Origin: Takakia lepidozioides | Lineage: Eukaryota; Plantae; Bryophyta | Assembly (NCBI GenBank): GCA_030704615.1 | Contig: CM060734.1 | Coordinates: 54,498,001-54,562,000, forward strand | Direction: 5' to 3' | Length of the DNA: 64,000 nucleotides | Part shown: one piece after another, positions 12,579 through 61,841 of the stretch | Layout: each line of letters begins with the position of its first letter | How positions within the stretch are numbered: the stretch's first letter is position 1 | Program-made: the position numbers and the translations under genes | The notes under the pieces: model-generated | What the model saw: the letters and a program-made list of their open reading frames with translations, nothing else | Told to the model about the DNA's origin: nothing | Databases searched by the model: none

Positions 12579-13760
12579 GTCAGGCACATACCCCGTCTTC
12601 TTTATCTGCCCAGACAATCTTCTCAGCTCAGCATGGATTTTCTTAATTCTGGGATGCAACTTGTCATCTATAACGAAGTACACCCTGTTGCAAACCTCAA
12701 TGCAACAGTGACCTGACTCATTTTCAATCCCTCTGACCTTCATCATTATTCTCACATTTACAGTATCAATCCACCTGCCAGCTGCGGCATAGATGTTTGA
12801 TAGCACTATAAGTCGCGACATCTTGTTCATTCCATTTGAGGATAGATGTTACCACACGTTCAACCATCTCTACATTGTCATGGATTCTGCAAGCACCAAA
12901 CAATGCCTTCCACACCACAACATCTGGATTGATTGACATTTTATTAATCAGATCCACTGCCTCATCTCGTTGTCCCACACGTCCAAGAAGGTCCACCATG
13001 TAGCCAAAGTGCTATACTGTCAGAGTGACACCATGATTTGGAATCAGGCAATCGAAATAATGTATTTCTTCATTCAGAAGACCAGTGTGGATGCATGCAG
13101 AGAAAACATATTTTGCATCAAGCCGTTCTTTTGTATTCTTTCAAATAATTGTAGGACCTCCCTGTGACAACCATCCTGAGCATATCCTGTGATCATTGCA
13201 TTCCACCATATTATCAAATCATCCCTTTGCATCCTCAAAGCACCCACATTTCGCATACATGTCCACCAGGGCAGTGTCCAGAATGACATTTGGTACAATT
13301 CCAGCTTTGATGATGTCACCATGCACCTCTTTGCCCTTTTTCAGGGCTGACTAACTTGCACAAGCATTGCAAATGCACACAAACGTGATGTGGTTGCACT
13401 TTACCCCTTCCCTCATCATTTGCTCATAGGTCTCCAAGGCCTCCATCCCGCGCCCCTGCTATGTATATTCTACAAGCATGGCGTTCCAGGACACCAAATC
13501 TCGTTCAGCCATATTGTTGAACACTCCCTCCGCATCCTCAATGGTCCCACATTTGGCATACATGTCCACGAAGGGTATTGTTCATACTTACATCTGTACA
13601 ATTCCAGCTTTGGCGATACAACCATCACCTCCTTTGTCATTTTCTAGGGCTGCCAGGCTTGCACACGCACTGCAAACACACACAAATGTGATGTGGTTGG
13701 GCTTCACCCCTTCGCACATCATTTGCTCATAGGTCTCCAAAGCCTCCATCCTGCACCATT
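12579..13760 (-). pseudogene. PLS-class PPR (E/E+, probably formerly DYW) RNA-editing factor pseudogene
   Basis: Frameshifted segments: EGVKPNHITFVCVCSACASLAALE, WNAMITGYAQDG, MVDLLGRVG...PDVVVWKALFGACRIH, LSNIYAAAGRW, HPRIKKIHAELRRLSGQIKKTGYVPD. Truncated at both ends by repeats. Confidence 0.9.
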
Positions 13761-13761
13761 G

Positions 13762-14061
13762 ACAAAGTTCGTAAGGCCGGGGGTTGAGAACGAAAAAATT
13801 TATCTCGGAGGCAATCAATTCACATTTTTGACAAATTTTGATTGTGTGGCCTAAGGTGCATCCTTCTGTCACGATGAAACTTCTCATCAGAGAAGGTAAC
13901 GATTTTAACAAAAGTTTTTTTTTTTTTTTTTTTTTTTCGCAATCTCATAAGTGAATGGTTGAAAACAAGTGCATGAAATACATGCAAGCCTCGCCCTTTT
14001 GTAATTATTCCAGATCAACACTGCTTCTACTTTTTTAGAGCATTCCTGACCCAATGAAATA
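13762..14061 (+). repeat. About 300-bp dispersed direct repeat, copy 1
   Basis: Highly similar to 18721-19008 (acaaagttcgtaaggcc...ctgacccaatgaaatac). Confidence 0.9.
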
Positions 14062-14255: not shown

Positions 14256-17200
14256 CTCCTTGTATTGTTTTTTAGCTTCTGCGAGGTTGAATGTAAGCTC
14301 CTTGTGAATCATAACAAGATGAGTAGCAAGGTTTTTTACAGCAGGGTTTCCAACAGTCTTCATGTGGAAATGGTTTGCTCGAGGATGATGACCATAATTG
14401 GAGAAAATAAGAGTTTCCTTGGTCGAAGAATGTATAGTGTTGTTGTAGGCAAACTCAGCCAATGACAGAAGGTCCGTCCAATTATCTTGGTAATAATTTA
14501 TCGTACAACGAAGATACTAATCTGGTTTACACGTTCGGTTTGATCATCAGTCTGTGGGTTTTTAGCTGTAGAGAGGTTGATCTTAGTATCCAATATGTGA
14601 AATAATCCCCTCCAAAAATTTGATATAAACTGTGGTCCTCGATCAAATACGATGTCCTCTGGGAGTCCATGAATGCGGTAGACATATTATTGAGGAATAG
14701 TCTTGCAATTTCCTCGCCGGTAACCATCTTATTACATGGAATGAATGTGTTACCTTCGTAAAACGATCTACAATAACAAGGATTAAATCGATGGTATTGG
14801 AAATTGGAAGGTCCGTCATAAAGTCCATAGACACGGACGACCATGGACCCTTGGGAATGGGTAATGGTTGAAGAAGGCCGTAAGGTCGATGTCGTAGTCC
14901 CTTTGTTCTAGCACACGTGTCGCAAGATTTTATAAATTCTTTTACGAGTTTCCACATCTACGGCCACCAATAGTCCCTAGATATCAATTCTATTGTTTTG
15001 TTGAAGCCGAAATGTCCTGCAGCCGGAAGATCATGACATGTTTGAAGAATTCGAAGTCGTGTAGGTCCTGGAGGTACATAGAGAAGTCCCTTGAAATAAA
15101 GTAAGTCATCTTTGAATTCGAAGTCGTTTGTAACATGTAGGTTGTCTCGAGGTCGATTTAGTTGACTTCGTAGTGTCGTAGCAAATTGGTCGCTCTTCAG
15201 TATTTCCTGAATTTCCTTTATGATCTCTACATCGTCATAGGTAGACATGGATAACATATTCAATTAGAAATTTGATGGTTTCAAGATGATGGATTTTTGT
15301 TGGTCGAAAGCTACCTCCATTTTTTTCGGCGCACAATACAATCGTCGAGAAAGAGCATCGGGTTTCCCTTGAAGATGTCTGGGGCGATAGGTAATAACAA
15401 AATCAAACCTTGCTAGTGACATACCCCATTTTGTTTAACGTCGATTCAAAACATGAACACTCATAAGATATTCGAGGTTTTTGTGATCGGTGTAAACAGT
15501 AACATAATGTTTAGCTCCCTCCAATAGATGACGCCACTCCTCAAAAGCATCGATGATCGCTAGAAGTTCTTTGTCATGGATTTCATAATTGATCTCTACA
15601 ACGGAAAATTTGCGAGAACGAAAACCAACAGGGTGAAGTCAGTCATCCGTACCGTATTGAGAGAATAACAAGTGCAAAGTCGGATGCATCTGCTTCCAAG
15701 AAGAATGGTTTAGATGGGTCTGCATGTACCAGTATTGGTGCCGTTGTAAATGTCTGCTTCAGCATTTCAAATGTCTGGTTAGCCTTCTCGTCCCATACAA
15801 ATTTGTCATTATCTGTGAGTCGTGTCAATGGTGCAACAATTTTGGAGTAGTCATTGATGAATATTGTATAGAAATTTGCAAATCCTAGAAAACATTGTAC
15901 ATCTCGGACCGAAGTTGGTTTAATCCACTCGATGATGGTTCGTATTTTCTTCTGATCCATAAAGACGCCTTTGTTGGAAATAATGTAGCCCAGAAATTCG
16001 ACCTCAGATTGATGGAAAAAGATATTTTTCCAACTTGGCATACAGTCTTCTTTTTCTTAATTTATCAAGGACAAGGCGTACATGGCGGCCATGTTCTTCT
16101 TCATTCTGTGAAAATATCAAAATGTCGTCCAAATAGATGACTATAAAGTCATCTAAAAATTCTCAAAAGATGTCATTCATCATATGTTGGAAAATTATTG
16201 GAGCATTTGTAAGATCGAAATGCATAATACTATATTCAAAATGTCAATATCTTGTTCGAAAAGTTGTTTTCCATTCGTCTTCTTCTTTTATCCGTACAAG
16301 GTTATAAGCTCATCTTAAGTCAATTTTGATGAAAATCTTCGCTTGTTCCAGTTGGTCGAGAAGCCCAAAAATCAGCGACAACGGATAACGATTCTTAATT
16401 TGACCTTGTTGAGACTGCGATAGTCTACACACATGCGTAATGATCCGTCCTTCTTTTTCACAAACAAGATAGGCGCCCCCGTAGGTGATTTTGAATGTCG
16501 GAAACATTTTTTTGGTGATGAATTTGTGGTGTCCAGCCGCACGGTTCCTACTGTGATTGGACATATTCATTTTCCGACCTCCTCGTTTTGAACACTTGAG
16601 TTGCGCCCCGAGCTTTGAATCTACTCTTGTTAGGGCAGTTTAATGATATGTGATATTCTTCTCCGCAATAGAGGCATAATCCATTCAAGCGCCATCTTTG
16701 TTTTTCTTGTGGCGTCAATGGCTTGAATCAGACAGCATCAATCTGCATATGATCACTATCGGATATCTGATGGATCATTGTGTTTGGTATCGTAGTAGCA
16801 GCGACATGATGCGTCGTCGACCATCCAGATCGCCTCTCTTGACGTCTTTTGAACAAACGATTATCGCATGCAATGACTTGGGTGATGAATTCACTCAGTG
16901 TGCTCACGTTTGGCATTGTCAGTAACAAATCTTTTACATCCTCTTTTAGCCCACATTGAAATTGACTAATGAGGCTCTTCCCATTCCAGTCGAGGTCGCA
17001 CAGAAGTTGTCGAAATTCGACAGCATAAACGGAAACATGACGTGCTCCTTGTCGAAGATTTTGCATCTTTGTCTCTGCAACTTTCTTTATATTATTCTTT
17101 CCAAATATTACAATGAACTCGGACATGAATGCTTCAAAATTATATAGTAAATGCAATTTTTTTTCTAATAGCGGTGCAAATCAAGACAGGGCAGTGCCTG

Positions 17201-18308
17201 ATAGAAGGGTGCCCATGAATCCCACTTGAATACCTTCATCGGGGTAGCGTTGTGGATGTAGTTGTAGGAACAGTCGTAGTTGTAGGAACAGTCGTACTTG
17301 TTGAACAAAACCGCGAAATCTTGATCTCGTCCCATCAAATTTCTCGGACATCCTAATCTTTGGTTCTCTCGTAATCTGTTGAAGATGAACCATTGCAGTA
17401 GGAGCTGTTGTAGTAGGGACTCGTATGGTTGAAGATCCATAGTTCAACTCCTTTAAGTTTGAAATTTGTTGTTGCAAATTGTGGAGAACATTGTCAAGAT
17501 TTTGAGACTGATCAACTTGTAATTGGGCTGTAGAGTTACGAAGTTCTTGCATCTGGAGCTGAAGACTCTGCAATGTGGCGACCATTTCCGCAAATGTGCC
17601 TTCCATCTTAACTAACTAATGAACAAACTTCAGTCTCGCCAAACTGTCAAGGACGAGAACATGACTGAACACAAACAAGATATTAGACTAGAGGTACAAG
17701 ACTAGACAAGAAGTCAAGGTCGGCGTGGCCGAATGCATGGTGGGTAAACATGAATCAAGATGATCTTTATAACAATGGACAAGAGTACAAGATACTGGAA
17801 CTCGACTCGAATGCTAGAATGCTGGAAACTGGACTGGGGTACCAGATACTGGAAACTGGACTAGAGTACTGGAAGTTGGACTGGAGTACTGGGACTGGGA
17901 ACAAGAGTAGCTTGAACTTGTGTTGGCGAGACTAAAGAGTGTTCAGTCTCGTCTTCTATATATACTGGCTACTAGGAGGTTCCCTGAGAGGATACCAAAG
18001 GAGGTTTCTTGATGGAGAAGTTTCCTTAAACAAATGAGGTATCTTGATGGAGAAGTTTCTTCCAAATGAAGCTTCCTGAGCAGTTTCCAAAGTTTGTTTC
18101 GGTAATTTGGTAAACTTCCGATAACTTGGTAACTAATGGTAACTTACGATAAATCATGGTAGATCATGATAGATCACGGTAATTTTTGATAACATGGTAA
18201 CTTGATAACTTCTGGTATTTACTCCTGATAAGTTCTTCTGGGCTATGTCCGTGAGATGAGGCCGCCGACCCCTGAAGCGGTGGGACCTTCTAGAAGGTTG
18301 CCCTAACA
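14256..18308 (-). mobile_element. Degenerate Ty3/gypsy (Tf1/sushi/Tcn1-like chromovirus) retrotransposon, 3'-truncated
   Basis: 5' LTR 17645-18308 (TGTTAGGG...CCTTGACA); gag 17606-16700 (PKIRMSEKFDG, LRQGARHVSVYAVEFRQL); RT (KNRYPL, VEFLGYIIS); RNase H (FFLEADASDFAL); integrase (HDLPAAGHFG, CDTC, SMDFMTDLP, AEFAYNN). Many stops and frameshifts; protease not recognisable. Confidence 0.92.
17632..17642 (-). promoter_or_regulatory. Self-priming PBS (complementary to the predicted transcript 5' end)
   Basis: TTGGCGAGACT just after the LTR is the exact reverse complement of AGTCTCGCCAA at 17933-17923, about 25-30 nt downstream of TATATATA (17957-17964). Confidence 0.8.
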
Positions 18309-18720
18309 CACGTCACTCCTAGAAACCACCACGCCTGATCCCAATCTAACCATGAACCATCTCCTATTTAATAGGTCTTACTTTTCTACCCCCCACCCCC
18401 TCCCCCCCTTACATGTGTGAGAGAGAGAGAGGACTCCGGCCGTAGCCGACTACTCCTTACATGACAGTTATTAATTGAACTCCTGCTGTAGTTTACTATA
18501 ACTCCCGCTTCATAATTCCTGGACCACTCTCTAATCCCTTCACCCCCTTTCAAACCTGGGCCCCTTATGGAGGCCCATCCACTGTTTAAAGAATGTGTGA
18601 ACAAGGCCGATAGCCCAAGTTCACTATGCTCGAAAACGGCGGAAAAAGGCCAGTCGGCTGCCCTTCACCGGCGTAAACAATATCAACCTTCCCCTCATAG
18701 CCCCTCAAATTTGTCATCTT

Positions 18721-19008
18721 ACAAAGTTCGTAAGGCCGCGGGTTGAGAACGAAAAAAATCATCTCGGAGGCAATCGATTCACCTTTTCGACAAATTTTGA
18801 TTGTGTGGCCTAAGGTGCGTCCTCCTGTCACGATGAAACTTCCCATCTGAGAAGGTAATGATTTTAACAAAGGGAATTTTATGTGGTTTTTTTTTTCGCA
18901 ATCGCATAAGTGAATGGTTGAAAACAAGTGCATGAAATACATGCAAGCCTCGCCCTTTTGTAATTATTCCAGATGAACACTGCTTCCACTTTCTGACCCA
19001 ATGAAATA
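18721..19008 (+). repeat. About 300-bp dispersed direct repeat, copy 2, in the XCT upstream region
   Basis: Matches 13762-14061. Confidence 0.9.
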
Positions 19009-22300: not shown

Positions 22301-24829
22301 ACTGAAACAATCTGCTCACTAATCATTGGAATGTACTGCAGATGAACCGCTGGAGATTACGTACAGTTACTGGGATGGTGCAGGTCATCGACGGGTGATT
22401 CAGGTGCTCTCTCCCTTCCTTACCTTCTGTGAAGTGGTTCAATGTTTCCTCCTTAAATCCTCAAAGCTGTCCTCTGCCTGACAACTTCTTGTTGCCCATG
22501 CACAAGAAGCTAGAGCTGTGGATAGTATTGAGAACATCATTACAAGGGAAAAGTAAATAGCAGTCAACCATCTGTGGAATGACCAGTCCAATCACTGCAA
22601 GATGTACACATGGCCTTCAAGCAAGAGACTGGTCTTTTTCTCTCATAGCTGACTTCTCAACCATTAGGTTGGGACTTCTTCTAGAAGATTATTGGTTGAA
22701 GGTCGAACCATTCGAGACCATTTTGTACCACTGGTTTGTGAGCTTCAAGGCTATAACACCAGAGCTGGTGGTTAGCAAGTTCACTTCAGATTTGAAGTTT
22801 CTTGTCCTTGGTCTTCAGGTGCGCAAGGGAGACTCCATAGCAGAGTTCCTGCGGGCAGTGCAGCAGCAACTAGCATCTGAATTTCGGGAAATTCGCACAG
22901 CTTCAGTGGAAAATTTGCTTTACGTCAAGGAGGATCTTATCATCCCCCATGTGAGCTACAGTGATCTATTCTCTCTCTATAGCTCTCTCTGACTCTCTCT
23001 TGTTTTCTTCTGTATCCAAAGTGGGTGCACGGTCTAGAACGTTTACAGCTACTGGATTATACAATGTGTAGCTTTTTTTCTCCCCCAATCTTTCTGTGTT
23101 GACGGGATGCTGATGTTTGGCATGTGGGATTGTGGACATCCAGCAACATAGCTTCTATGAGCTTATCATCAACAAGGCAAGGGGGAAAAGTGGCCCAGTA
23201 AGTGAAGACGGATCGGACCTGCAGTTTAATTGTGTTATCAGTAGTCTGACCAGCTTCCCTCAAACTATCGTTAAATAATTTTGATTGCAACTTTTGGGAT
23301 TACTCTGTTCAGACACTGGCATAGGTGAACAGTAGGCATGCATGTGTCCAGTTTCATGAGGTGAAAAAATTATGACTCAGGAGGGCTTCTTTTACTGGGA
23401 CTCCAGCATTCTGTGGAAATTCGTATAAGAGCAAATCTGTAACCAGAGCAACCAAATTGTTGGTTTTATGATGGGCATAGTGAGTCCTATGATTTCCATT
23501 CTAGCAACTGCCAGGGAGGGTCACCTTCGGCTTCTTTAGTCATTAGTCATGAGTATGGCTCGAAGTCAGTTAACCATGGTTATTTGATGAGGAAAGAAAG
23601 CCTCCAGATTAGAGCCCCAATGTTCCGGCTATAAATTGGACTATTTGCTGATATCTGTCTAAAGCATGTTGTGAGCATGTTAGTGTGTTCACTATGGGGT
23701 AACATCGTGGTTTCATGGTTTGTGCAAGTCCTCGCCGTATGTCATCTGTGCATGGATGTTGTTTTGCAATCAGGGATGTCTGATCATGACTGCTTTTACT
23801 GAAGGAGAGTGTATATGCAGCTTTTCCACTTTGATGTGCACGAGGATATTCGAACCATTGCGGATGCAACTATTGAGAAGGACGAGGTACTTCTAGGTCA
23901 CCACATCCAGTCTTTTCCATGTACAGCCTTCGGGGATCTTGCTTGGTGACAAGTCGTGAACTTACCAGTTAGGTGGTTGTCCGTCTAGAAGATTAAGGTC
24001 TATCAAATTGTAAGAACCACCAGAAGTGAACAGTAGCCATAAGACAGGTTGTGGGTTCATCTAAGGACCTAAGGTGCAGTACGTGACACATATCGGTACT
24101 TATTATTAGATCATTGGTAAAACACATAGAATCATGAATTTGTTTTCGTGATGAATCTTATAACGTGACCAATTTAGACATTGGTCTCTTTTATGCACTG
24201 TGCAGTCGCATGCTGGCAAAGTTGTAGAAAGACATTGGTATGAGAAAAACAAACACATTTTTCCAGCTTCAAGATGGGAGGTACTCATTCACCATCTATT
24301 TCTCTGCATTGCGGCATAAGCTGCAAGTTATAAACTAGGCATTCCTTGTGGCTGGATGTACCTCTTGAGATGTTATACTTTGCCCATTCACCAAATGCCA
24401 AATCTTTTTACATGTGAAGGATGTTCTTCTAGGTGTGGTTTTTTCATGGCATCGGGGTGTTATTTGCAAGTGTAGCTTGATGCAAGCTTGATGCAATTGG
24501 TGGTGGAGCCTCTATCACAGCCCTGCAGAACTATCTTCTTTTCTAGACACAACAGACTATGTATGAATAGATGCAGTAGTGCTCAATGCTAACAGTTTTG
24601 TACTCCTACGGCTTGGTGAATTGCCGAGCAGTTTTGTACTTTGGTAAGATACATAATTATAGGACCTCGGACATTTTTTACCATTGACCTCATGCCCTAC
24701 TAAACATTACAGGGTAGGAAGAGAAAAAAATTCTGCAGGCACTGAAATAATAATCATGATTGGATGAACCTGTGGCAGATCTATGATCCAACAAAGAAGT
24801 GGGAACGCTACACAATTCATGGTGATTAA
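19354..24829 (+). CDS. XCT: XAP5 circadian timekeeper / FAM50 family nuclear protein
   Basis: 12 exons: 19354-19518, 20217-20282, 20460-20524, 20874-20998, 21441-21528, 21955-22031, 22342-22403, 22819-22950, 23144-23197, 23821-23886, 24206-24280, 24779-24829. [15 protein letters not shown]...[13 protein letters not shown]...[16 protein letters not shown]...[13 protein letters not shown]...[10 protein letters not shown]...[16 protein letters not shown]...[25 protein letters not shown]. Confidence 0.96.
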
Positions 24830-26313: not shown

Positions 26314-29300
26314 ATGAATCATGGAAATAAAGGACGCGGTTTCTACGCTTCGATCACGTCCAGCTTTTCTATCTTCGGGAGTGCTGTGCATAACAAGGTG
26401 AACAGGTGCTGAATCTGATCGTACTCTCCTCGTTTTTGTGCAATTGTTGCATGAAGGAAAGGTCTTGTGTCACTGCCGGCTCCGACAGCTATGCCTTCAA
26501 CCGGGTGTCCTTAGAGTTCAGGAGTGTGCTCAAAATCTGTACTGTATGTCTCCTCGCATCTGCGCGAGTCCTATCTCCACACTTGATCCCCGAACATTTG
26601 GGTTTGATATGGAGGGAGGTTCCATAGACCATCGGACAGTCGATGTGCAAAACATGAATATTTTGTTTCAAATTAATATCTGAACATCACTTGAAGTGTA
26701 TCTGCGATGGGATGTGGACATGATCTCCTGGTTGGCTAGATTTTGTCTCATTGGCATGTATGTGAGAAGTTCACCCTTCATAAACGAGCTTGTATTTCCA
26801 CACTGTACTTATCTGATATCGCATCCTAACAGAGAATCATAGAAGGACACTGAGGCCTTGGATAATTCTCGAACTCCCCAAGTATGTGACTGTATATAAG
26901 CGAACCATACGGGTGATAAGTAATATTTCATCCTTTTTTGGTTTGTGTCATTTGCCGGTTTCAACAAGGCTGATGGGATGTTCTATCTGTGCCACACCCT
27001 TGTCTTCCTTTATGTCTTAGTGGCTGTTAGCTGCTGGGTACTCGCACCTAGGTCAGTTTACTGCACTTTCAGGCCCGCATGTTTCCCTAAGGCTCTAACT
27101 ACTACTCGTCAATTCCAAGTTTCAAATGAAATGAATGGATTTTGGCACATTCTCCGGTGAGATACGTCCGCAAGTTACAGGTCGTGTTAGTGTGTGGTTC
27201 CTTGGGATTGCTAATGGAATAAAGTTCTGGAAGGCCATGTTCTTAACTCAATGTTGTATGGATCCCTTGGCTTTGTCAGCAGCATTATGTTTGCCTCCTG
27301 GAATGAAAGAGGCTGCAGTAGTCTCATGGGGACCTCTTAGGCGGTGGCTGAATACATGTTCATTTAGTGAGCTACACCTTATAGACACTATCCTTTTTTA
27401 CTTGCCAAACCCATCCCCACCTGTCCCTCTCTTTCTCTCTCTTGGCCTTCTGAGTTTACTGTTTGTTTCAACCTGTCAGCAAGCACATACACTCCTACTT
27501 ATATTATACAAACTTTGAAACATATGAGAGAATGAAGCTGATTGGACAGAAGATGCTTGTTGCAGTTTACTTGGGTACCAAGGGTTGGAGGTAGTGAACC
27601 CAGAGGGTGGCCAAGAGGATGCCGAAGAGGAGGCCATCAGAGGGAGGTTTAAGCAGGAGGTCAGCTTCTTACATACACCTTATTTTTTAATTATGAACAA
27701 TTTGCAGGCAATGATTATTGCTTTGTGACACATCACCCAACAGAGAGGCCCCTCTGAAATCCAGGTTGGAGTCTTGTTTGGATGGGGGAGGCTCATAGTT
27801 ATTGCATTCAGTGAAAATTCGTCATGGTTGGTACCCATGGCTGCTCTTTGGTCTGAAATTTCTTGGGACTGACTTGTAAAAGTATGCCAGAACAGAATCA
27901 CAGGAAGCTAACACTGATGGATTCTGACATCGTTAGACTTCGCAAAGGCATCTTAGCTTACAGGCACTGCTTAGGGTTCTCGACTACCAAGAGAAAGAAT
28001 TTCTGTTGGACGTTTATGTGCTCCTCAGGTAGCCAGGGTGGACGAATACTGAATTGGTAGCCAAGCTTGCATTTAGAACTGTCTCAGCAAAGCAAGGCTT
28101 TTAGTTGTGAGAGGTGCAAGTGCTTGGGCCTGCATAGACATGCACTGAAACTGTTCCCCTGCCTTCTCTGAAGACTCTAAAGAGCAATGTTACCTATCTG
28201 TTTGGTGGGATCACCCGGATCAGGATCAGGAAAGCTATTGGAAGATGATGCGTAAGTACATTGGATCGGATGTAACCTCAATGGTGACCCTCCCTGTGCT
28301 CATATTTGAGCCCATGACTATGCTCCAGAAAATGGCAGAGGTATGTGACTTGTGCACAGATTGCCTTTTGGTTGTTAAGGAAGAGGTGAGGGACATATGC
28401 CAAAAAATACAGAGTGACTTTTGTCAGCAGAAGAGCTAGAGACTACAATCATGACTATAAAAGAATGTGATAATCTGTGTTTGCAGTTGATGGAGTATTC
28501 ATATCTTCTTGACATGGCTGATGAGTCTCCAGATCCATATTTGAAAATGGTCTATGCTTGTAAGTCTCTGCCTTTGTAGGCCATGAGTTGTGAAGGCTTT
28601 CATATTTGGTACTTATATATAAAAGCGTCTTTCTATTATTGTGCGTTGAAGCACCTGTGTAACATGTACATTCACTTTACTAGTTTCATTAAGACCTTTT
28701 GAGCATGGAGACCTTTTGACATGATTTTATGGACGAAGTTATGGTTGGGAAAAGTAGTAGGACTTCCTTACCAATCCAACTGTCATCACCATTTAAGAGA
28801 CTAGTTCAGCACCACATGTTTTAAGCATGAGGTTGAACCACAATTAGGCTATAGATTCAGCTCCTCTATGTTGATGTGGCTGTGGCAGCAACGTGGGCCT
28901 TGTCAGTATACTATGCTTATCAACGGACTTGGAAGGCATTCAACCCAATCCTAGGCGAGACATATGAAATGACAAACCACAATGGCATTACGTTCATCGC
29001 TGAGCAGGTCAGATCTGGAATGCTGCAGACAGTAGATGACACTCTTGTAGAATCTTGTATACAAGAACATTTTATGCTGCTGGTTAGATCAAGTTTTACT
29101 TGTGACTATCCAGCTTTATGGACCCAAAACCCTTTATGATATGAAATGCTTGACGTTGAAATGTATACCATTCTGACAGTCCAATTGACCAGCTCAAAAT
29201 TCTAGTCAAGTTTTACCTTGGTAGATCTGAAATTGGATTTAACTCCCCAAGAGGGTACGACTAACTGCCTTGTTTGCTAACATTTGACTGGTAGGTGAGC

Positions 29301-31792
29301 CACCATCCACCCATGAGTGCAGGTCATGCTGAGAACTCCCATTTCAGCTACGATGTGGCATCAAAGCTGAGGACCAAGTTTCTGGGCAACTCGGTGGATA
29401 TTTACCCTGTTGGAAGGTATCTCCAAACTGCTTAAATTATCGATGCAGCTGTACAGACATGTTTAAGCCAACATGACCTTTACTGCCGGTGTATTCATCA
29501 GTCAAAACGGGAAGGGAGCATTTGCTTGCTACCTGATAGTTAGGTTCAGTCTCCATGACTATTCCACCTGTTTGGATTTGACCTACCTGAGGTTGGAAAA
29601 ATGCATGTTTGTCAGCATGCATGCATCACTGGAATGGAACAATACACTGTGTTGATTAGCATGGATAATGTGAAACAATGTATCTCCAGTATATCATAAT
29701 TCATGCTAACATGGCTTATGAAAGAGTCGAAGTACTGAATACTGCTTATCTTTGTCTACAAGGGACATGTTTTAAAGCTTTGGTTAACCACCATTCATAT
29801 ACTCAAGTATCGGCATGAATATTAATATCTGGGGTGAAAATTCGTGGGAGAAGAGCAGGACACGAGTTGTGCTGAAGAAATCAGGGGAGGTATTGGACTT
29901 GGTGCCCCCTCCAAGCAAAGTGCACAACCTCATCTTTGGGCGCACATGGGTTGACTCCCCTGGTGAAATGGTGCTGACTAACGTCACCACTGGTGATAAA
30001 GCTGTCCTCTACTTCCAGCCTTGTGGGTGGTTTGGGTATGTAAAACATCTTATTTTCAGTGACTTGGAACCAATTGGAGGTGGCCTGGTCTTTTTGCATG
30101 GAAAGAAAAGCACTAACACAGCCAAGGAAACCATCCCTGGCAGCTTGCACACTGAAGAGAGTTGGTAGGAGGTGCACTTGCACTTGATTCTTCCTCAGCA
30201 GTTCGAATGTCTAGTATACTTATCCCGGGCATATGGAAAACTCTTTACCATGTCATGCTCCTGTCTTCGTTCTACCTTCGCCTATCAGTTGTGAGTCGTG
30301 CTGGTTTGATCATTGTGCAATTTGTGTGATTCTGGGTCAAGGGACCTTCTGTTGTTTAGAGCCTTCTAACTATGCAAAGTAATACCACTTTGTTTGTTTC
30401 CGGTATGTCAGAGTGGGGCGCCATGAGGTTGATGGGTATGTATACGATAAGGACGAGGAACCCAAGATGCTGGTGACAGGCAAGTGGAGCACATCCATGA
30501 GCTACCAGCCTTGTGATCTGGAAGGCGAGCCCCTTGATGGCACTGAACTCAAGGAGGTGCGCCTCTCTCCCACTGCTCTCATCTGGAGTCAAATGCTGAC
30601 ACCCTTTTTGGAGATTAGAGTGAAGTTTTAGTGTCGCACATGGGATGCTATGGTCTATGAGAGCTATGGAAGACCTTCTTCACACTTGAGACTATCAACC
30701 AACTGGGAGGGTTTATGGCCACTAGGCATCTATATCTCAATGACAAACCATTCTGACTTGATGAGTATATCTATGCCTTTTTCAGCCACAATGCATACTG
30801 GTCAGGAACAAAGTGGGGTTATCTTTTGAGGTATTCTAATTTTGGCACTACATCAGTTGTGCAGTTTGTAAATGTTTCCCAAACACCCTTAGAGTGCAGG
30901 TTTGGGCCATCTGAGGGTTTCAGGAATTCTTATTTTTCACTTTTGCTGATAATGGTGAAGGTGGTGCCTGCAGATATGGAGAGTGGCAGACACACCAAAG
31001 AATGACAAGTTTCAGTACACGCATTTTGCTCATAAGATCAACAGTTTTGAGACAGCTCCACTGGGACTGCTACCTTCTGACTCTCGCCTCCGGCCTGACC
31101 GCTATGCCTTAGAGATGGGTGATATGAACAAGGCCGGCTCTGAAAAATCAAGGTCTATGCCTGTGCCTGTCTAGTCAAAGACACGAAGCCCCTTGTTCAG
31201 TGTAGCCAGCCACAAACTGTAGGTTTGGACGTGCAAGACGCAAGTCACATTGCCATTTTCTAATACATGTTAGGCTGTATTGACATTGAAGCCTTGCAGT
31301 TCATCTGAGAACATGCAGACTTGAAAAATGGACCTCGAGTAGCTGTATTCTCAGGGATTTCTGTTGATGTTTTCCAGTGCTCTGTAGCTGAGAAAGCAGG
31401 TGACAAGGCCTGAGCTGTGTTAGCCTAGATGCTACCTTACAAAGAGATGAAATGCATTCGAATGTTTGATGTGCTGATCATGTGTGGTCTGTATGTTTAG
31501 AATGGAGGAGCGGCAAAGGGCTGAAAAGAAACTGAGAGAGGGGAGGCATGAGGAGTTCAAACCGCGATGGTTCAGAATGACGGGGGATATTACACCAACG
31601 CCCTGGGGTGGCCTTGAAATCTATGAGTACAATGGAAAGTACTCAGTACATCGCGAATCTGTGGACAAATTGGATGCAGACAAGAAAACTGACATTGAAG
31701 GGCTACCAATTCCATTCAACCCTTGGCAATTTGATTGTTCAGGAGAACAGTCCCATGTTGTCCCAGTGTTGATTGAGCCCATCTTGTCATAG
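26314..31792 (+). CDS. ORP3: Oxysterol-binding protein-related protein, ORP3 subfamily
   Basis: Exons 26314-26405, 27566-27659, 28224-28340, 28487-28559, 28889-29007, 29295-29416, 29859-30035, 30412-30556, 30974-31152, 31501-31792. OSBP signature [35 protein letters not shown]. Confidence 0.95.
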
Positions 31793-34069
31793 GCAAGATT
31801 TAAAAGCCTCCCCATTGATCTTCTTGGACTAGGGTTGCAATGGATTTGACCTTCTAACATCAGTGTAGTTCTTCCTCGAATGTGCTGGGCTCTGGGCATG
31901 CTTGTTCTACTCTCCCAGCAAGCACCTTCATTCTGTTGAATGAAAGTTGGCGCTTGCCTTATGAAACTCTGTAGGATAATGACTTACCCGACTTATTCTG
32001 CCTAATCCATTCCCTCATCATCTCATCAAGAAACTCGGTCGCTCTTGTCGAGCGCATGATTTGGCATGGGCCAACGTGGATCTCCCTGGGCTGATAGTGG
32101 TTTGATCTGCTTTTAGTTGCATTCTTCTAATGCAATTTTTGTCTGCACTCTATTGGGATGTTGTGTAGATACCCATCAAACCTTTAAGTGCGTTACATTG
32201 AATGAGGCAATTATTTGCCTTTACCCATTTGCAAGGGATTGCAAGGGTCATAGTTGTACAGACTTTTGGATTAGAGCTTTCTGCAAGCACCCCAAGGTGG
32301 GTAATTGTTCTGCATTGTTTTCCAACCCACTGTTATATGGATGGATCCCCAGTAGGATCACTGTTTCTTACAAGTACATATCTCTGCAGTTCCTGGGAGA
32401 TCAACGTCATACCACCGATGTCAGCCCCTGACAAAGGTAGTTTCTGTCCCTTTGTGTTCTGCTCAAACTGCGGGTCAATGGCCACAAGGCTATGGAAAAC
32501 GTCTTATGAGTACATTATGTAGACCATCCCCTTGTCTTGTCAAGTTTGTTCCAATAGTAGACAACTGATGGGACTAGGAAATGCCATAAGCTTGTAGTGT
32601 AGTGTCATTGTTTTGGCAGTAGGATAGGAGTCACTTAAGAGGAACTATTTTCTGCAAAAAAATTCCCAAGCCATAGATTATGAAACCTGGAAGAGAGAAC
32701 TTCTTGGCAGGAAGAAAAATCTGCAGCATTCTCTTCTGGATATTGGAGTCTCATGATCCACATGCAAGGCTAAGGAGGCTGAGCAGTTGCAGTGCAGGGA
32801 TTAGGAAAGGAACACACTCTGGAAACATCAGGATCATGAGTGCAGTCTAATCAGGGCTTCTGAGACACTGGTTCACATGGAACAAGGATACTTCCCTTCA
32901 GCTCTGACAGCAACTTTGTATGGCCCAAGACTCCTTGAAGGGTAATCTGGAAGAGGGTGATTCATAGAAAGGAGAATTGACAATTTGCTGTAAGGCAAGT
33001 TTGTGTCCTCCCAGGTAGGATGCATATGTATTCATCAAGAGCCCAGATGTTCAGGAGTTCGTTCAGGGTATCCTTAATGAAAACCCCTTGCTTAATTTGC
33101 CAGGCTTTTCCATGTGTAAGCATGGTGTCTATCCTTGCTTGACTACAGCCTTAGGGTTTTCTGGCTTTGATGTAATGAATTTAGGACAAATGACGTTGCT
33201 TGAGGGCACCAGCCATTCAGAGACCGCCCAAAAGCTGTCCTATTTGTTTCAGTGAATCGAAAGCCAGCAGGTGGGTCTGCATTTACTAATGTAGGCTGTG
33301 TAGTCCTTGCTCACTTAAATTATTCTCTCAGTCCTATGAGATCAGATGCATGTTTTGTCCTAGCAGAAAAAGGTAGAAGAGATTTTCAAGTATCTGAATA
33401 TTAGCCCTCAAGGCTCTGAATATGACTTGGAAACTGAAGTGTCTATAGTCATGTTGGGTTTGCTAAGTGCTGGAAGGGGTTCTCAACCCTCTTTTTTGGT
33501 AAATAGCCTTGTACCACTACTCCAGTGGCCGGGGGTTTGATTCGTGTGGATTTGGGGTGTTATGCAACAAGACTGGAGGTCCTATATTGAAGGGGGCACC
33601 TCCTGTGGGAGGTTCACGGTAGGGTTTTTGTTCACGCATATGTATTCCTACATCCATTGGCTCTGTCTTTCTCTCCCCTTGTTGGCTAGCCCTACAGACG
33701 ATCGAGAGTAATGGGCAAGACATCTCCCAGCTGCAGAGTGTCTTTGCCACTCATATCATTTGATCGTAAACTCAGGGCTATAAAAACTAAAATCATAAAC
33801 TTTGCAATTAGACTTACTTTGTTCTCTTCGGCCGAGAGCTAGATTTGCCTGCATCTATTCGCAGGGACGTTACAGTAGTCCTCAATCTTGACGATCTGGA
33901 TGTGTGGACACAAGCATGTGGATTCTGGAAGGTCAAGATGGCATGGTATGGAAGGATCATGTGCGCAATTGTGTGTCATGTCATCTCCCACATGTGGATG
34001 GGAGGATAGATACCAACCTTGCAGTGGTACCTGCAGGGTTGCGTTGCATGCTGGTGGTGTTGTAACCAT

Positions 34070-34741
34070 GTCCGACTCCATCAACCACTTCAATAGTTGA
34101 TGATCCGTGACAAGGGTGAAGAGATTGCCATAGAAATCATCTGAAATGTTCCACTGCTTATACTGCAGCTAGACACTCTCTTTCATATGAGTTATGTTTT
34201 GCCTCAGCATCATTGTTCGAGCGGCTAGCAAATGCCACTACGAACTCTCTTCCCTCATCATCCACCTCTGTGAACATTGTTCCAATACCCAACATATTTC
34301 AATCCGTATATAGCTGGAAAGGCCGCCCCCGAATAGGCCGCCTCAGAATAGGCGCAGAAGTCAATCGATCCTTGAGTTCTTCAAGGGCTTCCTCCTGTTC
34401 TTCTTCCCACTGTCATTCCTGACCCATCTTGGTCAACTTGGTAAGAGCTTTCGCAATGCTGCTAAATCCTTTGACAAACCGACGATAGTAGTTGGTCGAC
34501 CCCATGAAAGCACGAACTCTGCTTACATCTATGGGACGTGGAATGCGTGCAATGGCCTCCACCTTTGTCTGTTGAATACCCAATCCTCCAGGGTATATCA
34601 TGTGGCCCAGATACTCAATCTGATCGTGGAAGAACTTGCACTTTCCAGGGTGCAGTTTCAATCCATGCGCCCTCAAGCGCTCAAACATAACCTGAAAGTG
34701 TCTCTCATGCTCATCAACCGTGGCACTAAAGCTGATGATGC
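34070..34741 (-). mobile_element. Ty3/gypsy pol fragment (RT C-terminus + RNase H)
   Basis: FSATVDEHERH...GLKLHPGKCKFFHDQIEYLGHMI...VRAFMGSTNYYRRFVKGFSSIAKAL; LTSAPILRRP...FQLYTDW...VVAFASRSNNDAE; TDHQLLKWLMESD. Confidence 0.93.
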
Positions 34742-35400
34742 CTCTGTGGTTGTCTCTCTTGGTCCAAAATGCCCTCAACCGTGAGGTTGGGTGGCTGTTG
34801 AAAGGAATCATAGGCTCTCTTGTGCAACTCTGGTGGTGCAACATTGGTCCACCACAACCTAGCCCTATGTGCCCGTGAACCCACTGCAGCTGTATCCAAT
34901 AATACAGCTGGTCCAATCCAAGACCGCACCTTATACACACTAGCCATAACCTTGGCCCGAGAATCCCCCATGAGAGGAACATTCTCCAGGATGTAAGTTG
35001 GAGGTTGCACTTGCCTCACCTGCAAGTCACCCAACACTCGTAATATCTCCCAAAACAAATGCGATAATGCAAGCCATTCCCATGACCTGTGGGAGAGTGT
35101 CATTGGCAAGGTCATCCAACTATCACCAAGTCAATTGCACCATGCTGGCCCAAATCATCCACCCCCGGCAAAATAATGTCTGCTAGCAAGGCCTTTTGGT
35201 ATCCTTGAATTGCTGAGAAAGGCAGCAACTCAAGATACTGGTGTGTGAGCAAGGCAACGTGGCGCATAGAAATACGCCGAGGTATCTCATCTTTCTCCAC
35301 ATACAAGTACTTTCGTACTTTAATCCCAGCTTGCAACACTCCTGCAAGCCCAGTGCTCATGCCTCCAAACAGGTCTAGCAAACAAATCCCCGAGTCAGCA
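34742..35400 (-). pseudogene. DNMT3-like C5 cytosine DNA methyltransferase (motifs I-VIII), directly abutting the Ty3 RT
   Basis: Motif I LLDLFGGMSTG, motif II YVEKDE, motif IV DLVIVG*PCQ (PCQ at 35111-35103, stops on both sides), motif VI YILENV, motif VIII SRAHRARLWWTN; no introns. Confidence 0.88.
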
Positions 35401-35825
35401 AAGATGAAGGTGGATCCATAAAGAGAGCAGAACTTTCTAGAGTTGAAGTTAGCAATGATTCAGGTACGTTATTTCCCTGTCAGAGCGTTCCGTCGTTTTC
35501 CTCGTTATTAACTCTCGTTGGGATTGTAATGCATTGTGCTATGGTGTTGACTTGAGAAGTTTTTGTTGTGTGCTGGCATTAGGGTGTTATGGACAGTGCA
35601 CTTAGGATCTTTTCATTGAAGAGTTGAGTGCAATGGGATTTTGTGTCAACAAACTGATTCACTTGGATCTGTATTCTGGTGTCGTGATCAGTTCTTAAAG
35701 GACCCGAGAGTGGAACAAAGCTCACTAAAGACCATCCGATTTCAAAATTCGTGGCTTGCTTAAGAGACGCAAGGATACAAGAGCGAGTTAACGAGGCCCA
35801 ACTTGGCTCAGTGATTGACCTGCCA

Positions 35826-36619
35826 GAGGGTGTAGTCCAGCTTGGAGGTAAGACCATATTATCCACCCAATTATATTTAAGACAATGTTATTTAACATCT
35901 TAGAGACAATAAAGAATATTTTGAGTTGAACAAAAAGTTGAAGACAGTTCTATACAAGGGTACAGAGGGGATTGGAAAATCTCACCTCTGCGCTTTTGTG
36001 ATAACTTTGGAGTTGATAGTGGATATAATGGTTTACTTTGAAGTGGTGACACCATCACCGTTGAAAACAAAAAGAATATCCCAGTTTTTTAAGTTAGAGG
36101 TGACAACTAGAGTTCGAAAGTTGGACTCATTTGAAATCTTAGACCACCTAACCAGTAACGCCAAAATTATCTATATCATCGATGGTGAGCCACCGAGTAA
36201 CCCCATCTCTCATATTAAAAGCACAAGTGTTTGCAAGCCCAACAAAAACCCTTTATGTGGGTCACAAGAAATGCTAGAATTATCTTTATCTGCACATTTT
36301 TTTGTCAGTTTGGATGAGATGGAGAGTTGCAAAATTGGTATTAATCGTTTTAACAGAAACATCAACAGGGATATGGTGGAAGAGTGATTTTCGGCAACTG
36401 GAGGTGTGTTAAATCTGTGTTGAAAGACTCTAGCTCAAGAACAACACTAGCACCTTGGTTGCTGAAAGTATAGAACATGATTGTTGTTGACAAAGAATAA
36501 AAAGTATGATTGGACATCTATAATTGGACACTTTCCTTGACAACAATGATTCATTTTTTCCATTGACATATAGATGAGACTACTGTGCAATCTGAAGAAC
36601 ATGCATTGAGTCTTCAGAA
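35826..36619 (+). pseudogene. Crinkler (CRN)-like P-loop NTPase pseudogene, left arm of inverted duplication
   Basis: LYLRQCY...VLYKGTEGIGKSH (Walker A), IYIIDG (Walker B-like), GGVL motif; premature stops. Confidence 0.55.
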
Positions 36620-36802
36620 TTATATGTGATAATGTCTGGAATCAGCAGCCTATACATAGGGCAGCTATCTCAACGTCTCTTGTTGTGTTCAACATGAAGA
36701 TACTACTTCAAGAATCTGCTTTAGATGTAGGTCGAGGGCAAACTGATTAGCAACCCATCCTGATGCAAAGCAGAGAATTTGTGTCTAAAGTGCCTTGAAG
36801 AT

Positions 36803-37603
36803 TTTTTCAGAAGATCCGATGCATGTTCTTCAGATTGTACGGTAGTCTCATCCATGTCCCAATGGAAAAATGAGTCATTGCCGTTGGGAAAAAGTGTCTA
36901 ATTGTAGGTGTCTAATCATATTTTTTATTCTTTCTCATCAACTATCATGTTTTGGACTTTCAGCATCCAAGATGTTAGTGTTATTCCTGAGCTAGAGTCT
37001 TTCAACATAGATCTTAACACACCTCCAGCTACCGAAAACCACTCTTCCACTGTATCCTTGTTGATGTTTATGTTAAAACGATTAATACTAATGTTGTCGC
37101 TCTCCATCTCATCCAAGCTGAACAGAAGAGTGTACAGATAAAGGTAAATCTAGCATTTCTTCTAACCCACATAGAGGGCTTTTGTCGGGTTTGCAAACAC
37201 TTGCGCTTCTAATATGGAAGATGGGATTACTCGGTGGCTCACCAACGATGATATAGAAAACTTTAGCATTGCTGGTTAGGCGGTCTAAGATTTCAAACTA
37301 GCCCAACTTTGGAATACTAGTTGTCACCTCTAATTTAAAAAACTGAGACATTCTTTCTGTTTTCAACGGTGCTGGTGTCATCATTTCAAAGTAAATCACT
37401 ATACCCACTATCAACTCCAGAGCTATCACAAAAGCGCAGAGGTGAGATTTTCAGATTTTCGGTGTACCCGTGTACATAATTGTCTTAAACTTTTTGTTCA
37501 ATTCAAAATATTGTTTTTTTGCCTCTAAGAACTCAAAATAAGAGGATTTTAATTACAATTGGTTGGAAAATGTGGTACTCCCTCCAAGCCAGACTACATC
37601 CTC
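36803..37603 (-). pseudogene. Crinkler-like NTPase pseudogene, right (inverted) arm
   Basis: Reverse complement aligns along the whole left arm (MDEMESDNISINRFNININKDTVEEWFSVAGGVLR vs LDEMESCKIGINRFNRNINRDMVEE). Confidence 0.6.
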
Positions 37604-57117: not shown

Positions 57118-59137
57118 ATGGAGCCTTTGGTATACGACAATCCCGAACACTGTCAATGCCACTGGTAGTGTTGAGTGCAACCTATGTGGATTAAAACTTT
57201 CGTAAGGATCAGTTGTTCGCTTACCTCGGCTATAAAGGTGTGAAGAGCGCTAGGGTGGGTTTATGCCCCAAAACATCTATGCGGTAAAAAGCCATTTTGC
57301 CCAATGTGGAGGCAATACTCTAAGGTTTTTGGATCTGGACATGACCTCTGAGCAGAACACTCCATCTTCCCGTTATGATGCCCCGATTAGTACCCAGGGC
57401 GACTCTTGTGAGGCTTCGGGTGTCCTTGGACAAGTGGGTTGAGCCGGAGCAACACCTGCTTCAACACCTCTTTGTACCTCTACACTTCAACGGAGTAGAG
57501 GATTACGGCAGCAATCCATGCAATAAGGTCTTAACTTGTCTGCGAAAAGACAGTTGGATAAAAAATGGGCGCAGTTTTTCTTCGAGGCCAACATACCATT
57601 TAATGTGGCAAGGCTTCCGACATTTGTTTCTGTTGTTAGAGCAACCTCGGAGTCCAGATCCACGTACGTGCCTCCGACTTATCACAATCTCCGCACAGGA
57701 TTGCTAGAAGACGCCATGACCGAGCTTACCCAAAAAGTCAACGATAGGACGGGCGAGTGCATCAGAAAATATGGAAGCACTATATGTGCCGATGGTTGGA
57801 ATTCTGTCACAAACAGACCGTTGTTCAATGTCATGCTCGTATGTCCAGCTGGGGAACAATTCTTGGGATCGGTCGACACTAGCGGCAAGAAGAAAGATGG
57901 ATGTTATCAATGCCAACTATTGATGGACTTCATCAAACAGGTCGGAAGTGATAGAATCGTGCAAATATGCATAGACAATGCCGCTAACATGAGAAACACT
58001 GCAGACATGTTGTTGACACGTTATCCCCATATGTACTATCAAGGTTATGCTCCTCATATCATTGACCTCCTTTTGGAAGATTGGGGAAAAGAACAGTGGG
58101 TGAAACAACTTGTCAAGCGAGCGAAGACTGTTGTGTCGTTTATCCGCACACACCACATCCCTTTGGCAAAATATAGGAGGCACAAACCCAAATACAGCCT
58201 CCGCAATCCAGGCGAAACTCGTTTTGCCACTAGCTTCTTGATGATGGATCGGTTGGTGACGGTGAAGAACAGTCTGGAGCACACCATCATCGATCCTCAA
58301 TGAGATGCGTACACATGGATATTGCGGGACTCCAGAAAAGCCAAGTCATTGGGCAAAAGTCGAAAAGTTTGAAATAGCATTCGCAGCGATGATTTTTGGA
58401 AGAAATGTGAAAACTTTGTTTATATGGTTGAGCCGGTGTTAATCGTCTTGCGGGAGTTTGATGGAAAGAAACCAGTAATGGGCAAGGCATGATTACTAAT
58501 GCAAAATCTTGAGAAGCACGTCCAATCCTTGAGGCATCCTCCCTTCTTCTTGGAACCTGAACTTGTAGACAGTGCTGAGGATGCATTTTACGACCGTCGT
58601 TCGATGGTTCGAACGGACTGGCATTATGCGGGGGCTTTGCTCAATCTATTCTTGCTCGACAATACCATGCTCCGAGACGACGCTGATGCCAAGGCCGGCC
58701 TCGTGCGAGTGCTCATGCGACTGGCTCCGCCGAACCATGCAGAGAGAGCTATATCCGAGTACCAATGCTTCTCAAATCGCCATGACCCTTTTGAGGACAT
58801 GCCGGATCCAAAAGAGCTCAATATGCTGCCACATGAATGGTGGGATCTGATTGGAGCTGGAGCAAGAACATTGGCTTCCATTGCAAAGCGTATTCTTGCT
58901 CAAGTGTGCTCTGCATCATCTTGCAAACGCAATTGGAGCAGTTACTCATTTGTTCACAACAAGATTCGCAACAGGCTGAATCCCGCGAAGGCTGACAAAT
59001 TGGTGTATGTGTATATCAATTGTCGACTGCTACGTGAGAGGGCAGCGGATGATGTTGCAGCATGGTATGAGATGAATTTGCATTCCGAAGACTCTGCTTC
59101 TGAGGCTGATTCAATGAGTGACGATATTGAGCCTTAG
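57118..59137 (+). pseudogene. hAT transposase (DUF659 + hAT dimerisation domain) with premature stops
   Basis: FFFEANIPFNVA, TICADGWNSVTNRPLFNVM, VQICIDNAANM, PGETRFATSFLM, EWWDLIG, ILAQVCSASSCKRNWS, KIRNRL. Confidence 0.93.
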
Positions 59138-60549: not shown

Positions 60550-61841
60550 ATGATCTTAGAGACGGGTCAAAGAGTGTTTCTTACTCTTCCCGGGTCCTCA
60601 TCTGTAGTAGCCACTGGGGACTGCCTTAATGTCTCCGGGGTTGGGACCTATCATGGACAACAATTATCTTCCTCAACCATTTCAGTGGTTCTCATCTCAT
60701 GTGATGAAGCACACTCATTATGTCATCTTCCTTATGGACATATGGATGCTAACACCTTGAAGGAGGCCATGGGGACCCCGGTGATGTGGAATGTTGGCGA
60801 AGTTCTTGCGGAGAATAACGAGTATCAAGGAGGGCCTGACATGAATCCTGATTTTATGCCGGAGACAAGAGATATTGTCGAGAATTCTGACGTCGACGAG
60901 GATGAATCAAACCACAGACCATCAAAGAGTTCCGGGAATCCAAGCGGAGGACTCGGAAGAAACAACTGGAGAAACTTGTAGTGCTTACTGTTGGGTGATG
61001 ATGGGGGTGCACTATTCGAGGGGAGGATTCAAGCTGCATTCCGGACGAGGTGATCCTCAATGACAAACTGGGAGAGGACGATGTTGGAGTTCTTGTCACC
61101 AGAATATTTTCTGGAGGTTCTGGATCTTTGATGTCTCTTGTAAAATGGTCTTTAACAAAAACACGACTTTTGGAAAAGTAGGAGACTACTCTCAAATGAT
61201 CTGGAGAATTTTATTAGATCCTTTGACAGTATCTTGTACGAAGATCATGAGGCAGGTGTGAAGAAAACGGCGTATCGGCATTTTACGAGAAAGAAGAGGG
61301 ATCGAGATTTGGAACATTCCAAAAAAAGAATGAAGAATCTTACCCTCGAGGAAGTCCGGTCCGCGAGCAACAAACCTTGCTGCAGATTTCACTGCTGTCA
61401 ATATTTCGATTGGCGAAAAACCTTGGCTATCCGTACTTCGTTTTGGGGATCCACTTTCGATGAGCGTAGAGAAAACGGACTGAATGTTTCGAAATGACTT
61501 CACATGCTGGAAGGGACCTCTCGCAGGGCATACGTTACGATTGAGGGTGTAGATGTATGTGAGACTGCTTGGTGGACAATTCATGGAATTGGCAGGTCCA
61601 CATACATGGAGTACAAAAAGTTGAGTAAATAGGGTTGGTTGTCAAGTCTCCATGGGAACCGTGGAGTGAAGAGGCCACGCCCAAAGACACTTCAGGCAGA
61701 GATAACATTATGTCCATTGTCAACGGAAATACTCACCTCATGCCCCATAAGACAAGATGCATTGGGGAGGGAAAGAGGGATACTTTGAGAGTCTTACCAC
61801 CTGAAATGAACTGGAAGCGAATACGAGACGAGTCCAACGAG
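60550..61841 (+). pseudogene. Sola/DUF7869-like transposase N-terminal part, preceded by a Tnp1/En-Spm-type beta domain; disrupted
   Basis: TYHGQQLSSSTISV...LPYGHMDANTLKEAMGTPVMW; KPCCRFHCCQYF; TIEGVDVCETAWWTIHGIGRSTY; HGNRGVKRPR; HLMPHKTR. Confidence 0.55.

Follow-up and report, generated by a model that had tools for sequence, protein, structure and literature searches.

Why should a plant retrotransposon encode a DNA methyltransferase (DNMT)? Cytosine methylation is the main weapon of plants against transposons, and a transposon carrying a methylating enzyme is thus a standing puzzle. The question is raised here by a 64,000-nucleotide stretch of the genome of Takakia lepidozioides (contig CM060734.1, positions 54,498,001 to 54,562,000; hereafter the window), in which a DNMT3-like domain is joined to the reverse transcriptase (RT) and RNase H of a Ty3/gypsy element. 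The relic, about 1.6 kb out of a whole element of about 9 kb, is almost certainly a dead, deleted and partly inverted remnant of a multi-copy bryophyte Ty3/gypsy family having its own DNMT3-like methyltransferase. Our overall reading, to which we give a probability of roughly 0.8, is that of a remnant of a bryophyte DNMT3-encoding Ty3/gypsy family whose working copies likely methylate newly made complementary DNA (cDNA) before integration; the window copy itself performs none of the proposed steps.

Anatomy of the relic and origin of its junction

Three-frame translation of the minus strand located the methyltransferase and polymerase parts of the relic at 34053..35408, and its remaining part was found inverted at 33815..34052; both ends and part of the interior of the element are lost. 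The features are as follows.

35067..35408, minus strand: DNMT3-like C5 methyltransferase, motifs I-IV (LDLFGG, VEKD and G*PCQ, the asterisk being a stop), 58-62% to Marchantia proteins
35378-35361, minus strand: motif I, LDLFGG
From 35300, minus strand: motif II, VEKD
35117-35103, minus strand: motif IV, G*PCQ, with the catalytic Cys codon intact
34741..35064, minus strand: DNMT3-like domain after the frameshift, motifs VI and VIII, 63-65% to Marchantia proteins
34986-34978, minus strand: motif VI, ENV
34872-34843, minus strand: motif VIII, AHRARLWWTN
34740..34741: deletion junction, about 1.24 kb missing compared with whole relatives (6531 to 7775 in relative L005)
34053..34740, minus strand: C-terminal half of Ty3/gypsy RT and RNase H, with four stops and a frameshift near 34135, stopping short inside RNase H
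33918..34052, plus strand: inverted C-terminal piece of integrase, just before the PHD-like finger, 55-70% amino acid identity to four of the four loci tried (E 5.6e-16 to 1.7e-8)
33815..33917, plus strand: inverted piece of integrase just after the catalytic core, 41-49% amino acid identity to the same number of loci (4/4 tried; E 5e-8 to 4e-6)

The DNMT match begins at about 35408, and gag and protease, expected upstream of it, are missing from the relic. TGA stops flank the Pro-Cys-Gln of motif IV on both sides (35114-35112 and 35102-35100), and the reading frame shifts near 35066. At 34740/34741 the frame changes and RT (IISFSATVDEH...) starts just past the expected position of YxDD, followed by RNase H; Pfam matched this piece to the C-terminal part of RVT_1 (E 4e-8) and to RT_RNaseH_2 (E 3e-26). 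With two stops in the DNMT and four in the RT-RNase H piece, the relic has six stops and two frameshifts altogether. Lost at the junction are the rest of the DNMT, the spacer with its in-frame stop and the first half of RT including YxDD, and neither motifs IX-X nor YxDD was present in the minus-strand translation of the window copy, which cannot be an active methyltransferase given the stops beside motif IV and the loss of motifs IX-X. The original prediction, made from the letters alone, had described just such a decayed and internally deleted copy, with motifs I, II, IV, VI and VIII running into Ty3 RT and RNase H near 34741 and with motifs IX-X and YxDD gone, and was correct in each of these respects. 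Beyond it are the inverted integrase pieces, between which about 240 bp are missing. Long terminal repeats (LTRs), a tRNA primer site and a target-site duplication were not detected in the window, a weak test since repeats of the L005 type may be too diverged, and the ratio of observed to expected CpG (0.46 in the relic, 0.55 in the window) was uninformative.

Other copies of the family were found in contigs from four runs of one sample. Summed contig depth was 32-60 in the unique sequence on either side; the six DNMT-only bins lay hundreds of times higher, at 8,868-75,126, RNase H reached as much as about 400,000, and outside ~33820-35450 the depth dropped to flank level. It was taken only as a sign that the family is likely hundreds of copies strong. 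Loose contig ends clustered at 34739-34742, as well as at 33917 and 34052, the edges of an inverted integrase piece. When those at the junction were read by eye, the DNMT side continued into the next DNMT stretch and the RT side into the YxDD region. As the loose ends continue into undeleted family sequence on both sides, the junction arose by deletion within a longer form. Two contigs span 34740/34741, each with four letters unlike the window, indicating that the junction is no assembly artefact, and it may exist twice. An intron as the source of the missing stretch was ruled out by eye, since the stretch absent relative to the other copies has no AG end. The differences between the window and the copies (X1) were mostly transitions, with the window having T for C at 54 places and A for G at 47, a bias that would be expected from decay of methylated DNA.

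A family linking DNMT3 to Ty3 polymerase

One predicted protein of Marchantia (P0002), carrying PF00145, RVT_1 and RNase H, matches both sides of the junction, at 58% and 64% for the DNMT pieces and at 64% over 204 amino acids for RT-RNase H. The second DNMT piece, used as a query, matched 15 proteins, eight of them from Marchantia polymorpha, and every named top match was a Marchantia protein of this family. In a DNMT tree of 30 rows, hand-picked out of 214 full domains, the window fell in a nine-row clade with Marchantia, Calypogeia and Sphagnum rows (support 100/100), and a FastTree tree of all 214 domains gave the same placement (support 1.0). A quick RT-RNase H tree of 91 rows placed the window alongside Marchantia and metagenome loci in a clade of 11 rows, with a support of 100 in the Shimodaira-Hasegawa-like approximate likelihood ratio test. 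Thus, because the same Marchantia protein matches both sides and a single bryophyte clade is recovered in separate trees, the link between DNMT and RT belongs to the family. Marchantia, Sphagnum and 9 of the 14 metagenome loci show this link, which bears out the idea of a DNMT-bearing Ty3 family in a land plant. The order is that of Ty3: RT precedes RNase H in the window, protease to RT-RNase H-integrase was found in 5 of the 14 relative loci, and the integrase survives in the window as inverted pieces only.

None of the three DNMT-bearing window pieces matched PF00145 at E<=0.1, the model that the original prediction had put forward as a check on a repaired translation. A family profile, drawn from 57 DNMT domains that excluded the window, gave the two DNMT pieces scores of 129.5 and 120.2 bits, compared with 3.0 bits for the best of 10 shuffled windows and at most 3.1 bits in the rest of the window. 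Single-sequence searches of the window pieces against PDB gave weak matches (best E 0.004 for motifs I-IV, DRM-type; 0.03 for motifs VI-VIII, DNMT3A), and the assignment to the DNMT3 class therefore rests on the family profile and the fold. Against PDB, this profile matched DNMT3A first (E 2e-28), followed by DNMT3C and DNMT3B, and at lower rank DRM (4e-15), M.HhaI (6e-10) and DNMT2 (3e-6). The DNMT domain of Marchantia, folded with an alignment, gave a model with a predicted local distance difference test (pLDDT) score of 96.5, for which all top Foldseek matches listed were DNMT3A/B/C (template modeling score 0.65-0.72); P0010, folded without an alignment, gave no usable model (pLDDT 31). The motif order is linear and unpermuted, from I to VIII in the window and on through IX-X in the Marchantia relatives. 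Judged by profile and predicted fold, with tree rows that held no host DNMT3 sequences, the family enzyme is nearer to DNMT3 than to DRM, DNMT2 or bacterial enzymes, as had been proposed in preference to the permuted DRM.

The catalytic Cys of motif IV (C96), the Glu of motif VI (E139) and the Arg pair of motif VIII (R179 and R181) are at least 90% conserved in the 57 diverse domains, and motif I of the family reads LFGG where DNMT3A has LFDG. Comparison of the window with eight loci gave 0.29-0.41 nonsynonymous substitutions per site (dN) in the DNMT, at synonymous values (dS) from 1.3 to saturated, and comparison of the RT-RNase H piece with five loci gave dN of 0.22-0.27 and dS of 2.3 or more. 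Because dN is low relative to dS in these pairs, the DNMT appears to have been kept under purifying selection; dS was saturated in many of the pairs, which makes the dN/dS ratios rough.

The whole relatives, about 9 kb in length, encode gag (with a zinc knuckle), protease and DNMT, then an in-frame TAG, and then RT, RNase H and integrase in the same frame, the integrase ending in a PHD-like Cys/His pattern. The 14 metagenome loci were found with one family protein that groups with the Sphagnum fallax element; DNMT is followed by RT in nine of them, and five have gag, protease, DNMT, RT and integrase all present. The sequence TAG CAA CCC ATG lies between DNMT and RT in all nine loci spanning the spot (two of which, L012 and L013, are near-duplicates), so that the single open reading frame (ORF) for DNMT, RT, RNase H and integrase expected by the original prediction is split in the nearest relatives. 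Likewise, the Marchantia ORF1 proteins terminate shortly past the DNMT, at 1278-1281 amino acids. The seven motifs checked were all intact in four of five such proteins, and P0114 shares 96-97% identity with P0113, P0120 and P0121, which suggests recent copying. In the more distant P0042, P0184 and P0092, the DNMT lies together with RT in the Pol ORF.

Complete repeats of the layout A-coding-B-A-B, with A of about 340 bp and B of about 115 bp, were found in 2 of the 14 loci (L005 and L008), and L001, L007 and L011 finish in a single B. A purine tract stands just before B; a TGG-type primer site after A was absent in the seven relatives checked, and no clear target-site duplication was established in the relatives. 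The 3' A/B join varies among copies (L005, 10838-10858; L008, 15105-15106; L012, 13580-13596), being direct, or with extra bases, or including bases otherwise found downstream of the 5' A, a pattern that linear cDNA end-joined into a circle would give. The L008 contig also holds two far more diverged DNMT-then-RT elements, at 2459-4687 (minus strand) and 17717-18716 (plus strand), with DNMTs 38-40% to Marchantia, indicating that one genome can hold more than one lineage of DNMT-bearing Gypsy elements.

A search with the Marchantia DNMT domain returned 86 proteins, and a library clustered at 50% gave 230 matches at E<=1e-30, the best 150 of which were listed. The named relatives, a minority of the matches, were from Marchantia, Calypogeia fissa, Sphagnum fallax, Closterium (three proteins), Hariotina, Haematococcus and Monoraphidium, with none named Klebsormidium among the names returned; P0093, labelled as a Spirochaetia metagenome-assembled genome and having integrase and PHD domains, is probably from a mis-binned contig. 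The matches thus place the family beyond the genome of the window, in mosses and liverworts, with algal kin. Two domain orders were seen among the 214 full DNMT domains: in 71 the DNMT sits between RT-RNase H and integrase, the order of Hariotina, and a separate group of 79 rows, the window among them, is made up of the domains that have protease before them or RT after them. The RNase H-DNMT-integrase set (P0067, P0089 and P0090 besides the 71 proteins) is large and partly chlorophyte, usually with a C-terminal PHD finger, and no description of it was seen in the literature searched.

The host was placed by an acetyltransferase gene at 41.9-43.9 kb of the window, having two conserved exons 78-82% identical to Sphagnum and 63-72% identical to liverworts; in a 12-row tree it grouped with mosses (100/100), beside Sphagnum (83/85). 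An early-diverging moss is the probable host. The Sphagnum (P0043) and Marchantia (P0002) elements are 88% alike over 86 amino acids of RT, and they stand together in the DNMT tree at 89/87 with the window copy outside, though the host sits beside Sphagnum, a grouping that may reflect horizontal transfer or old parallel lineages.

A possible role in cDNA methylation and its alternatives

In the mechanism we propose, ORF1 would be translated at the level of Gag, so that many molecules of the enzyme would enter the particle and be freed by the protease, and RT-RNase H-integrase would be made at a lower level, by ribosomes that read through the TAG or start again at an ATG lying six bases further along. 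New cDNA would be the only DNA in the particle and hence the presumed substrate. The DNMT would methylate this naked cDNA de novo, and the new copy would arrive already marked, being masked as host DNA or having its own expression damped. The repeat layout could correspond to a two-LTR circle opened at the inner B/A boundary. Related domains, those of SymbioDIRS-Dnmt3, showed de novo CG methylation in yeast according to de Mendoza 2018 (PMC5890265). We put the chance that cDNA methylation is the purpose of the element's DNMT at slightly under even. A wider version is more doubtful: that Ty3 elements with a DNMT3-like enzyme, rather than being peculiar to one alga, are an old lineage of the whole green line, which has two domain orders and extends from algae to mosses and liverworts. 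Its bryophyte branch would use a leaky stop, express the enzyme at the level of Gag, methylate cDNA in the particle and integrate via a circle. If this were true, recent intact copies in Marchantia would be a mobile, so far uncounted source of de novo DNA methylation in a model land plant.

Several points weigh against this account. The TAG and the repeats are known from relatives at 65-75% DNA identity, the region being lost in the window copy, and the CAA CCC context fits the CAR-YYA readthrough consensus in part only. Among the decayed metagenome loci dN/dS was about 0.45-1.4, as expected of dead copies, which lends no support to recent selection. The four runs all come from one sample, perhaps the source of the window itself, and are not independent, and summed contig depth is no copy number. 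No tree included a host DNMT3 or a named Klebsormidium element, and the acetyltransferase tree held neither hornwort nor vascular rows. Finally, KnitGypsy-Dnmt3, the Gypsy element of Klebsormidium nitens, gave no methylation in yeast, a result that its authors call inconclusive (PMC5890265).

This yeast result would also fit a DNMT fold retained for binding nucleic acid, as a chaperone or shield of RNA or cDNA, with catalysis irrelevant, and so would LFGG in motif I; we consider this improbable, since C96, E139, R179 and R181 are invariant or nearly so across the 57 domains. Alternatively, the same element may use its enzyme for another job, in the nucleus, on integrated copies or host chromatin, leading to self-limiting silencing or altered insertion sites. 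It is established that DNMT3 enzymes act on chromatin, the integrase of the relatives ends in a PHD-like finger, and both insertion-site chromatin and host fitness effects are among the options named by de Mendoza 2018 (PMC5890265). However, a domain fused behind Gag-protease would be expected to sit in the particle with the cDNA, and Pfam scans of the family proteins showed no PWWP- or ADD-type targeting domain, leaving a nuclear role unlikely, if still a serious candidate.

Other explanations concern the relic itself. The fusion of DNMT and RT might have been copied a few times as a small non-autonomous derivative instead of being a one-off wreck, given that the two junction-bridging contigs differ by four letters and have depths of 78 and 65 versus about 55 and 44 in the flanks. 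We regard this as a long shot: terminal repeats were not found in the window, depth is at flank level outside ~33820-35450, the loose ends of many contigs continue into undeleted sequence, and a segmental duplicate or a second individual would account for the four letters. That a retrocopy of a host DNMT3 gene lies by chance next to an unrelated RT fragment, as the original prediction had allowed, would agree with the two halves being out of frame at the junction, and no host DNMT3 was placed in a tree. Yet the DNMT half, the RT half and the inverted integrase pieces all match the same elements, Marchantia proteins of this family account for every named top match of the DNMT piece, further copies in the sample run past the junction on both sides, and the closest kin, rather than a multi-exon host gene, are ORFs of retrotransposons in which the link to pol is conserved, so that a retrocopy has next to no chance of being the explanation. 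A remnant of a DNMT3-encoding family with cDNA as the proposed substrate is the reading that we retain.

Surroundings of the relic and known systems

Elsewhere in the window, a large inverted repeat at 35826-37603, with arms about 86% complementary and 186 bp between the innermost arms, contains the remains of a P-loop NTPase-like frame (GTEGIGKS, 35896-36387), for which Pfam gave nothing useful and the atlas leads, AAA, NB-ARC and RHS clusters, were all below 0.9. Two other decayed Ty3/gypsy elements lie at 14527-17615 and 61733-63253, both on the minus strand, at about 30-38% to the DNMT family in RT and RNase H, and a short separate high-copy repeat at ~33380-33404 shows a depth spike, with loose ends at 33404. 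The frames at 57527-59137 (plus strand) resemble a hAT-type transposase, apparent pieces of host genes at 28149-31792, 22561-22992 and 3419-3814 (all plus strand) resemble an oxysterol-binding protein, XAP5 and a diacylglycerol kinase, respectively, and the first of two similar stretches at 13588-13944 and 18586-18963 (both minus strand) holds a PPR-like fragment.

The literature search found no land-plant report of a DNMT3-bearing Gypsy element; it covered text other than figures, bioRxiv supplements, most subscription papers and Repbase, and statements here on published work refer to the parts of each source that were available. In these parts, de Mendoza 2018 describes the Gypsy form in K. 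nitens only, from a genome list that has Physcomitrella and lacks Marchantia (PMC5890265), and Sarre 2025 (PMC12344493) and a 2026 preprint (10.64898/2026.05.21.726589) speak of 'streptophytes' and name no land plant, a word that may quietly include land plants. PMC12344493 cites the 2018 title and names Marchantia, in a passage concerning N4-methylcytosine (4mC). DNMT-Gypsy elements go unmentioned in passages of Schmid 2018, Ikeda 2018, Yaari 2019 and PMC8557442, and none of the five Marchantia methyltransferases of Schmid 2018 is one of these element copies; bryophyte DNMT inventories may miss or miscount such copies. The 2018 paper did not demonstrate activity for its one Gypsy example, which had no genetic model (PMC5890265). 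The intact-looking copies of Marchantia polymorpha, for which methylomes and methyltransferase mutants exist, would make the function testable.

Among known systems, host DNMT3 of bryophytes shares the DNMT3-class catalytic domain and linear order with the family enzyme, but land-plant host DNMT3 has a domain of unknown function, and host DRM is permuted (PMC6453930, PMC12344493, PMC5784723); in contrast to both, the family DNMT is intronless, repeated and embedded in a retrotransposon. The EpiLTRs of Cymbomonas and Euglena are likewise LTR retrotransposons with a cytosine DNMT, which, however, is sister to DNMT4 and accompanied by an adenine methyltransferase and a chromodomain, and which their authors hold to be distinct from streptophyte Gypsy-DNMT3 (bioRxiv 10.64898/2026.05.21.726589). 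SymbioDIRS-Dnmt3 of Symbiodinium also has a DNMT3-like domain in a retroelement with A-coding-B-A-B repeats, but is a dinoflagellate element of the DIRS class with a tyrosine recombinase, whereas the family here is Ty3 with a DDE integrase (PMC5890265).

The closest described system is KnitGypsy-Dnmt3 (PMC5890265), compared here by description, not by sequence. It has a Gypsy RT, RNase H and integrase, an intronless and unpermuted DNMT3-like domain under purifying selection, a streptophyte host and DIRS-type repeats, a layout defined in that paper as A-coding-B-A-B and found here in L005 and L008, though absent from the window relic. It differs in its algal rather than land-plant host and in having the DNMT in the Pol ORF, whereas the nearest relatives have a TAG between gag-protease-DNMT and RT. 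Its acquisition was assigned to the K. nitens lineage; here, kin were found in Closterium, liverworts and mosses, and the chlorophyte kin, with the order RT-RNase H-DNMT-integrase-PHD, also lie outside that lineage, a spread that speaks against acquisition in Klebsormidium alone. Systems of this kind are already known, and the family represented in the window is like KnitGypsy-Dnmt3 in anatomy and unlike it in that its nearest relatives separate DNMT and RT into different ORFs.
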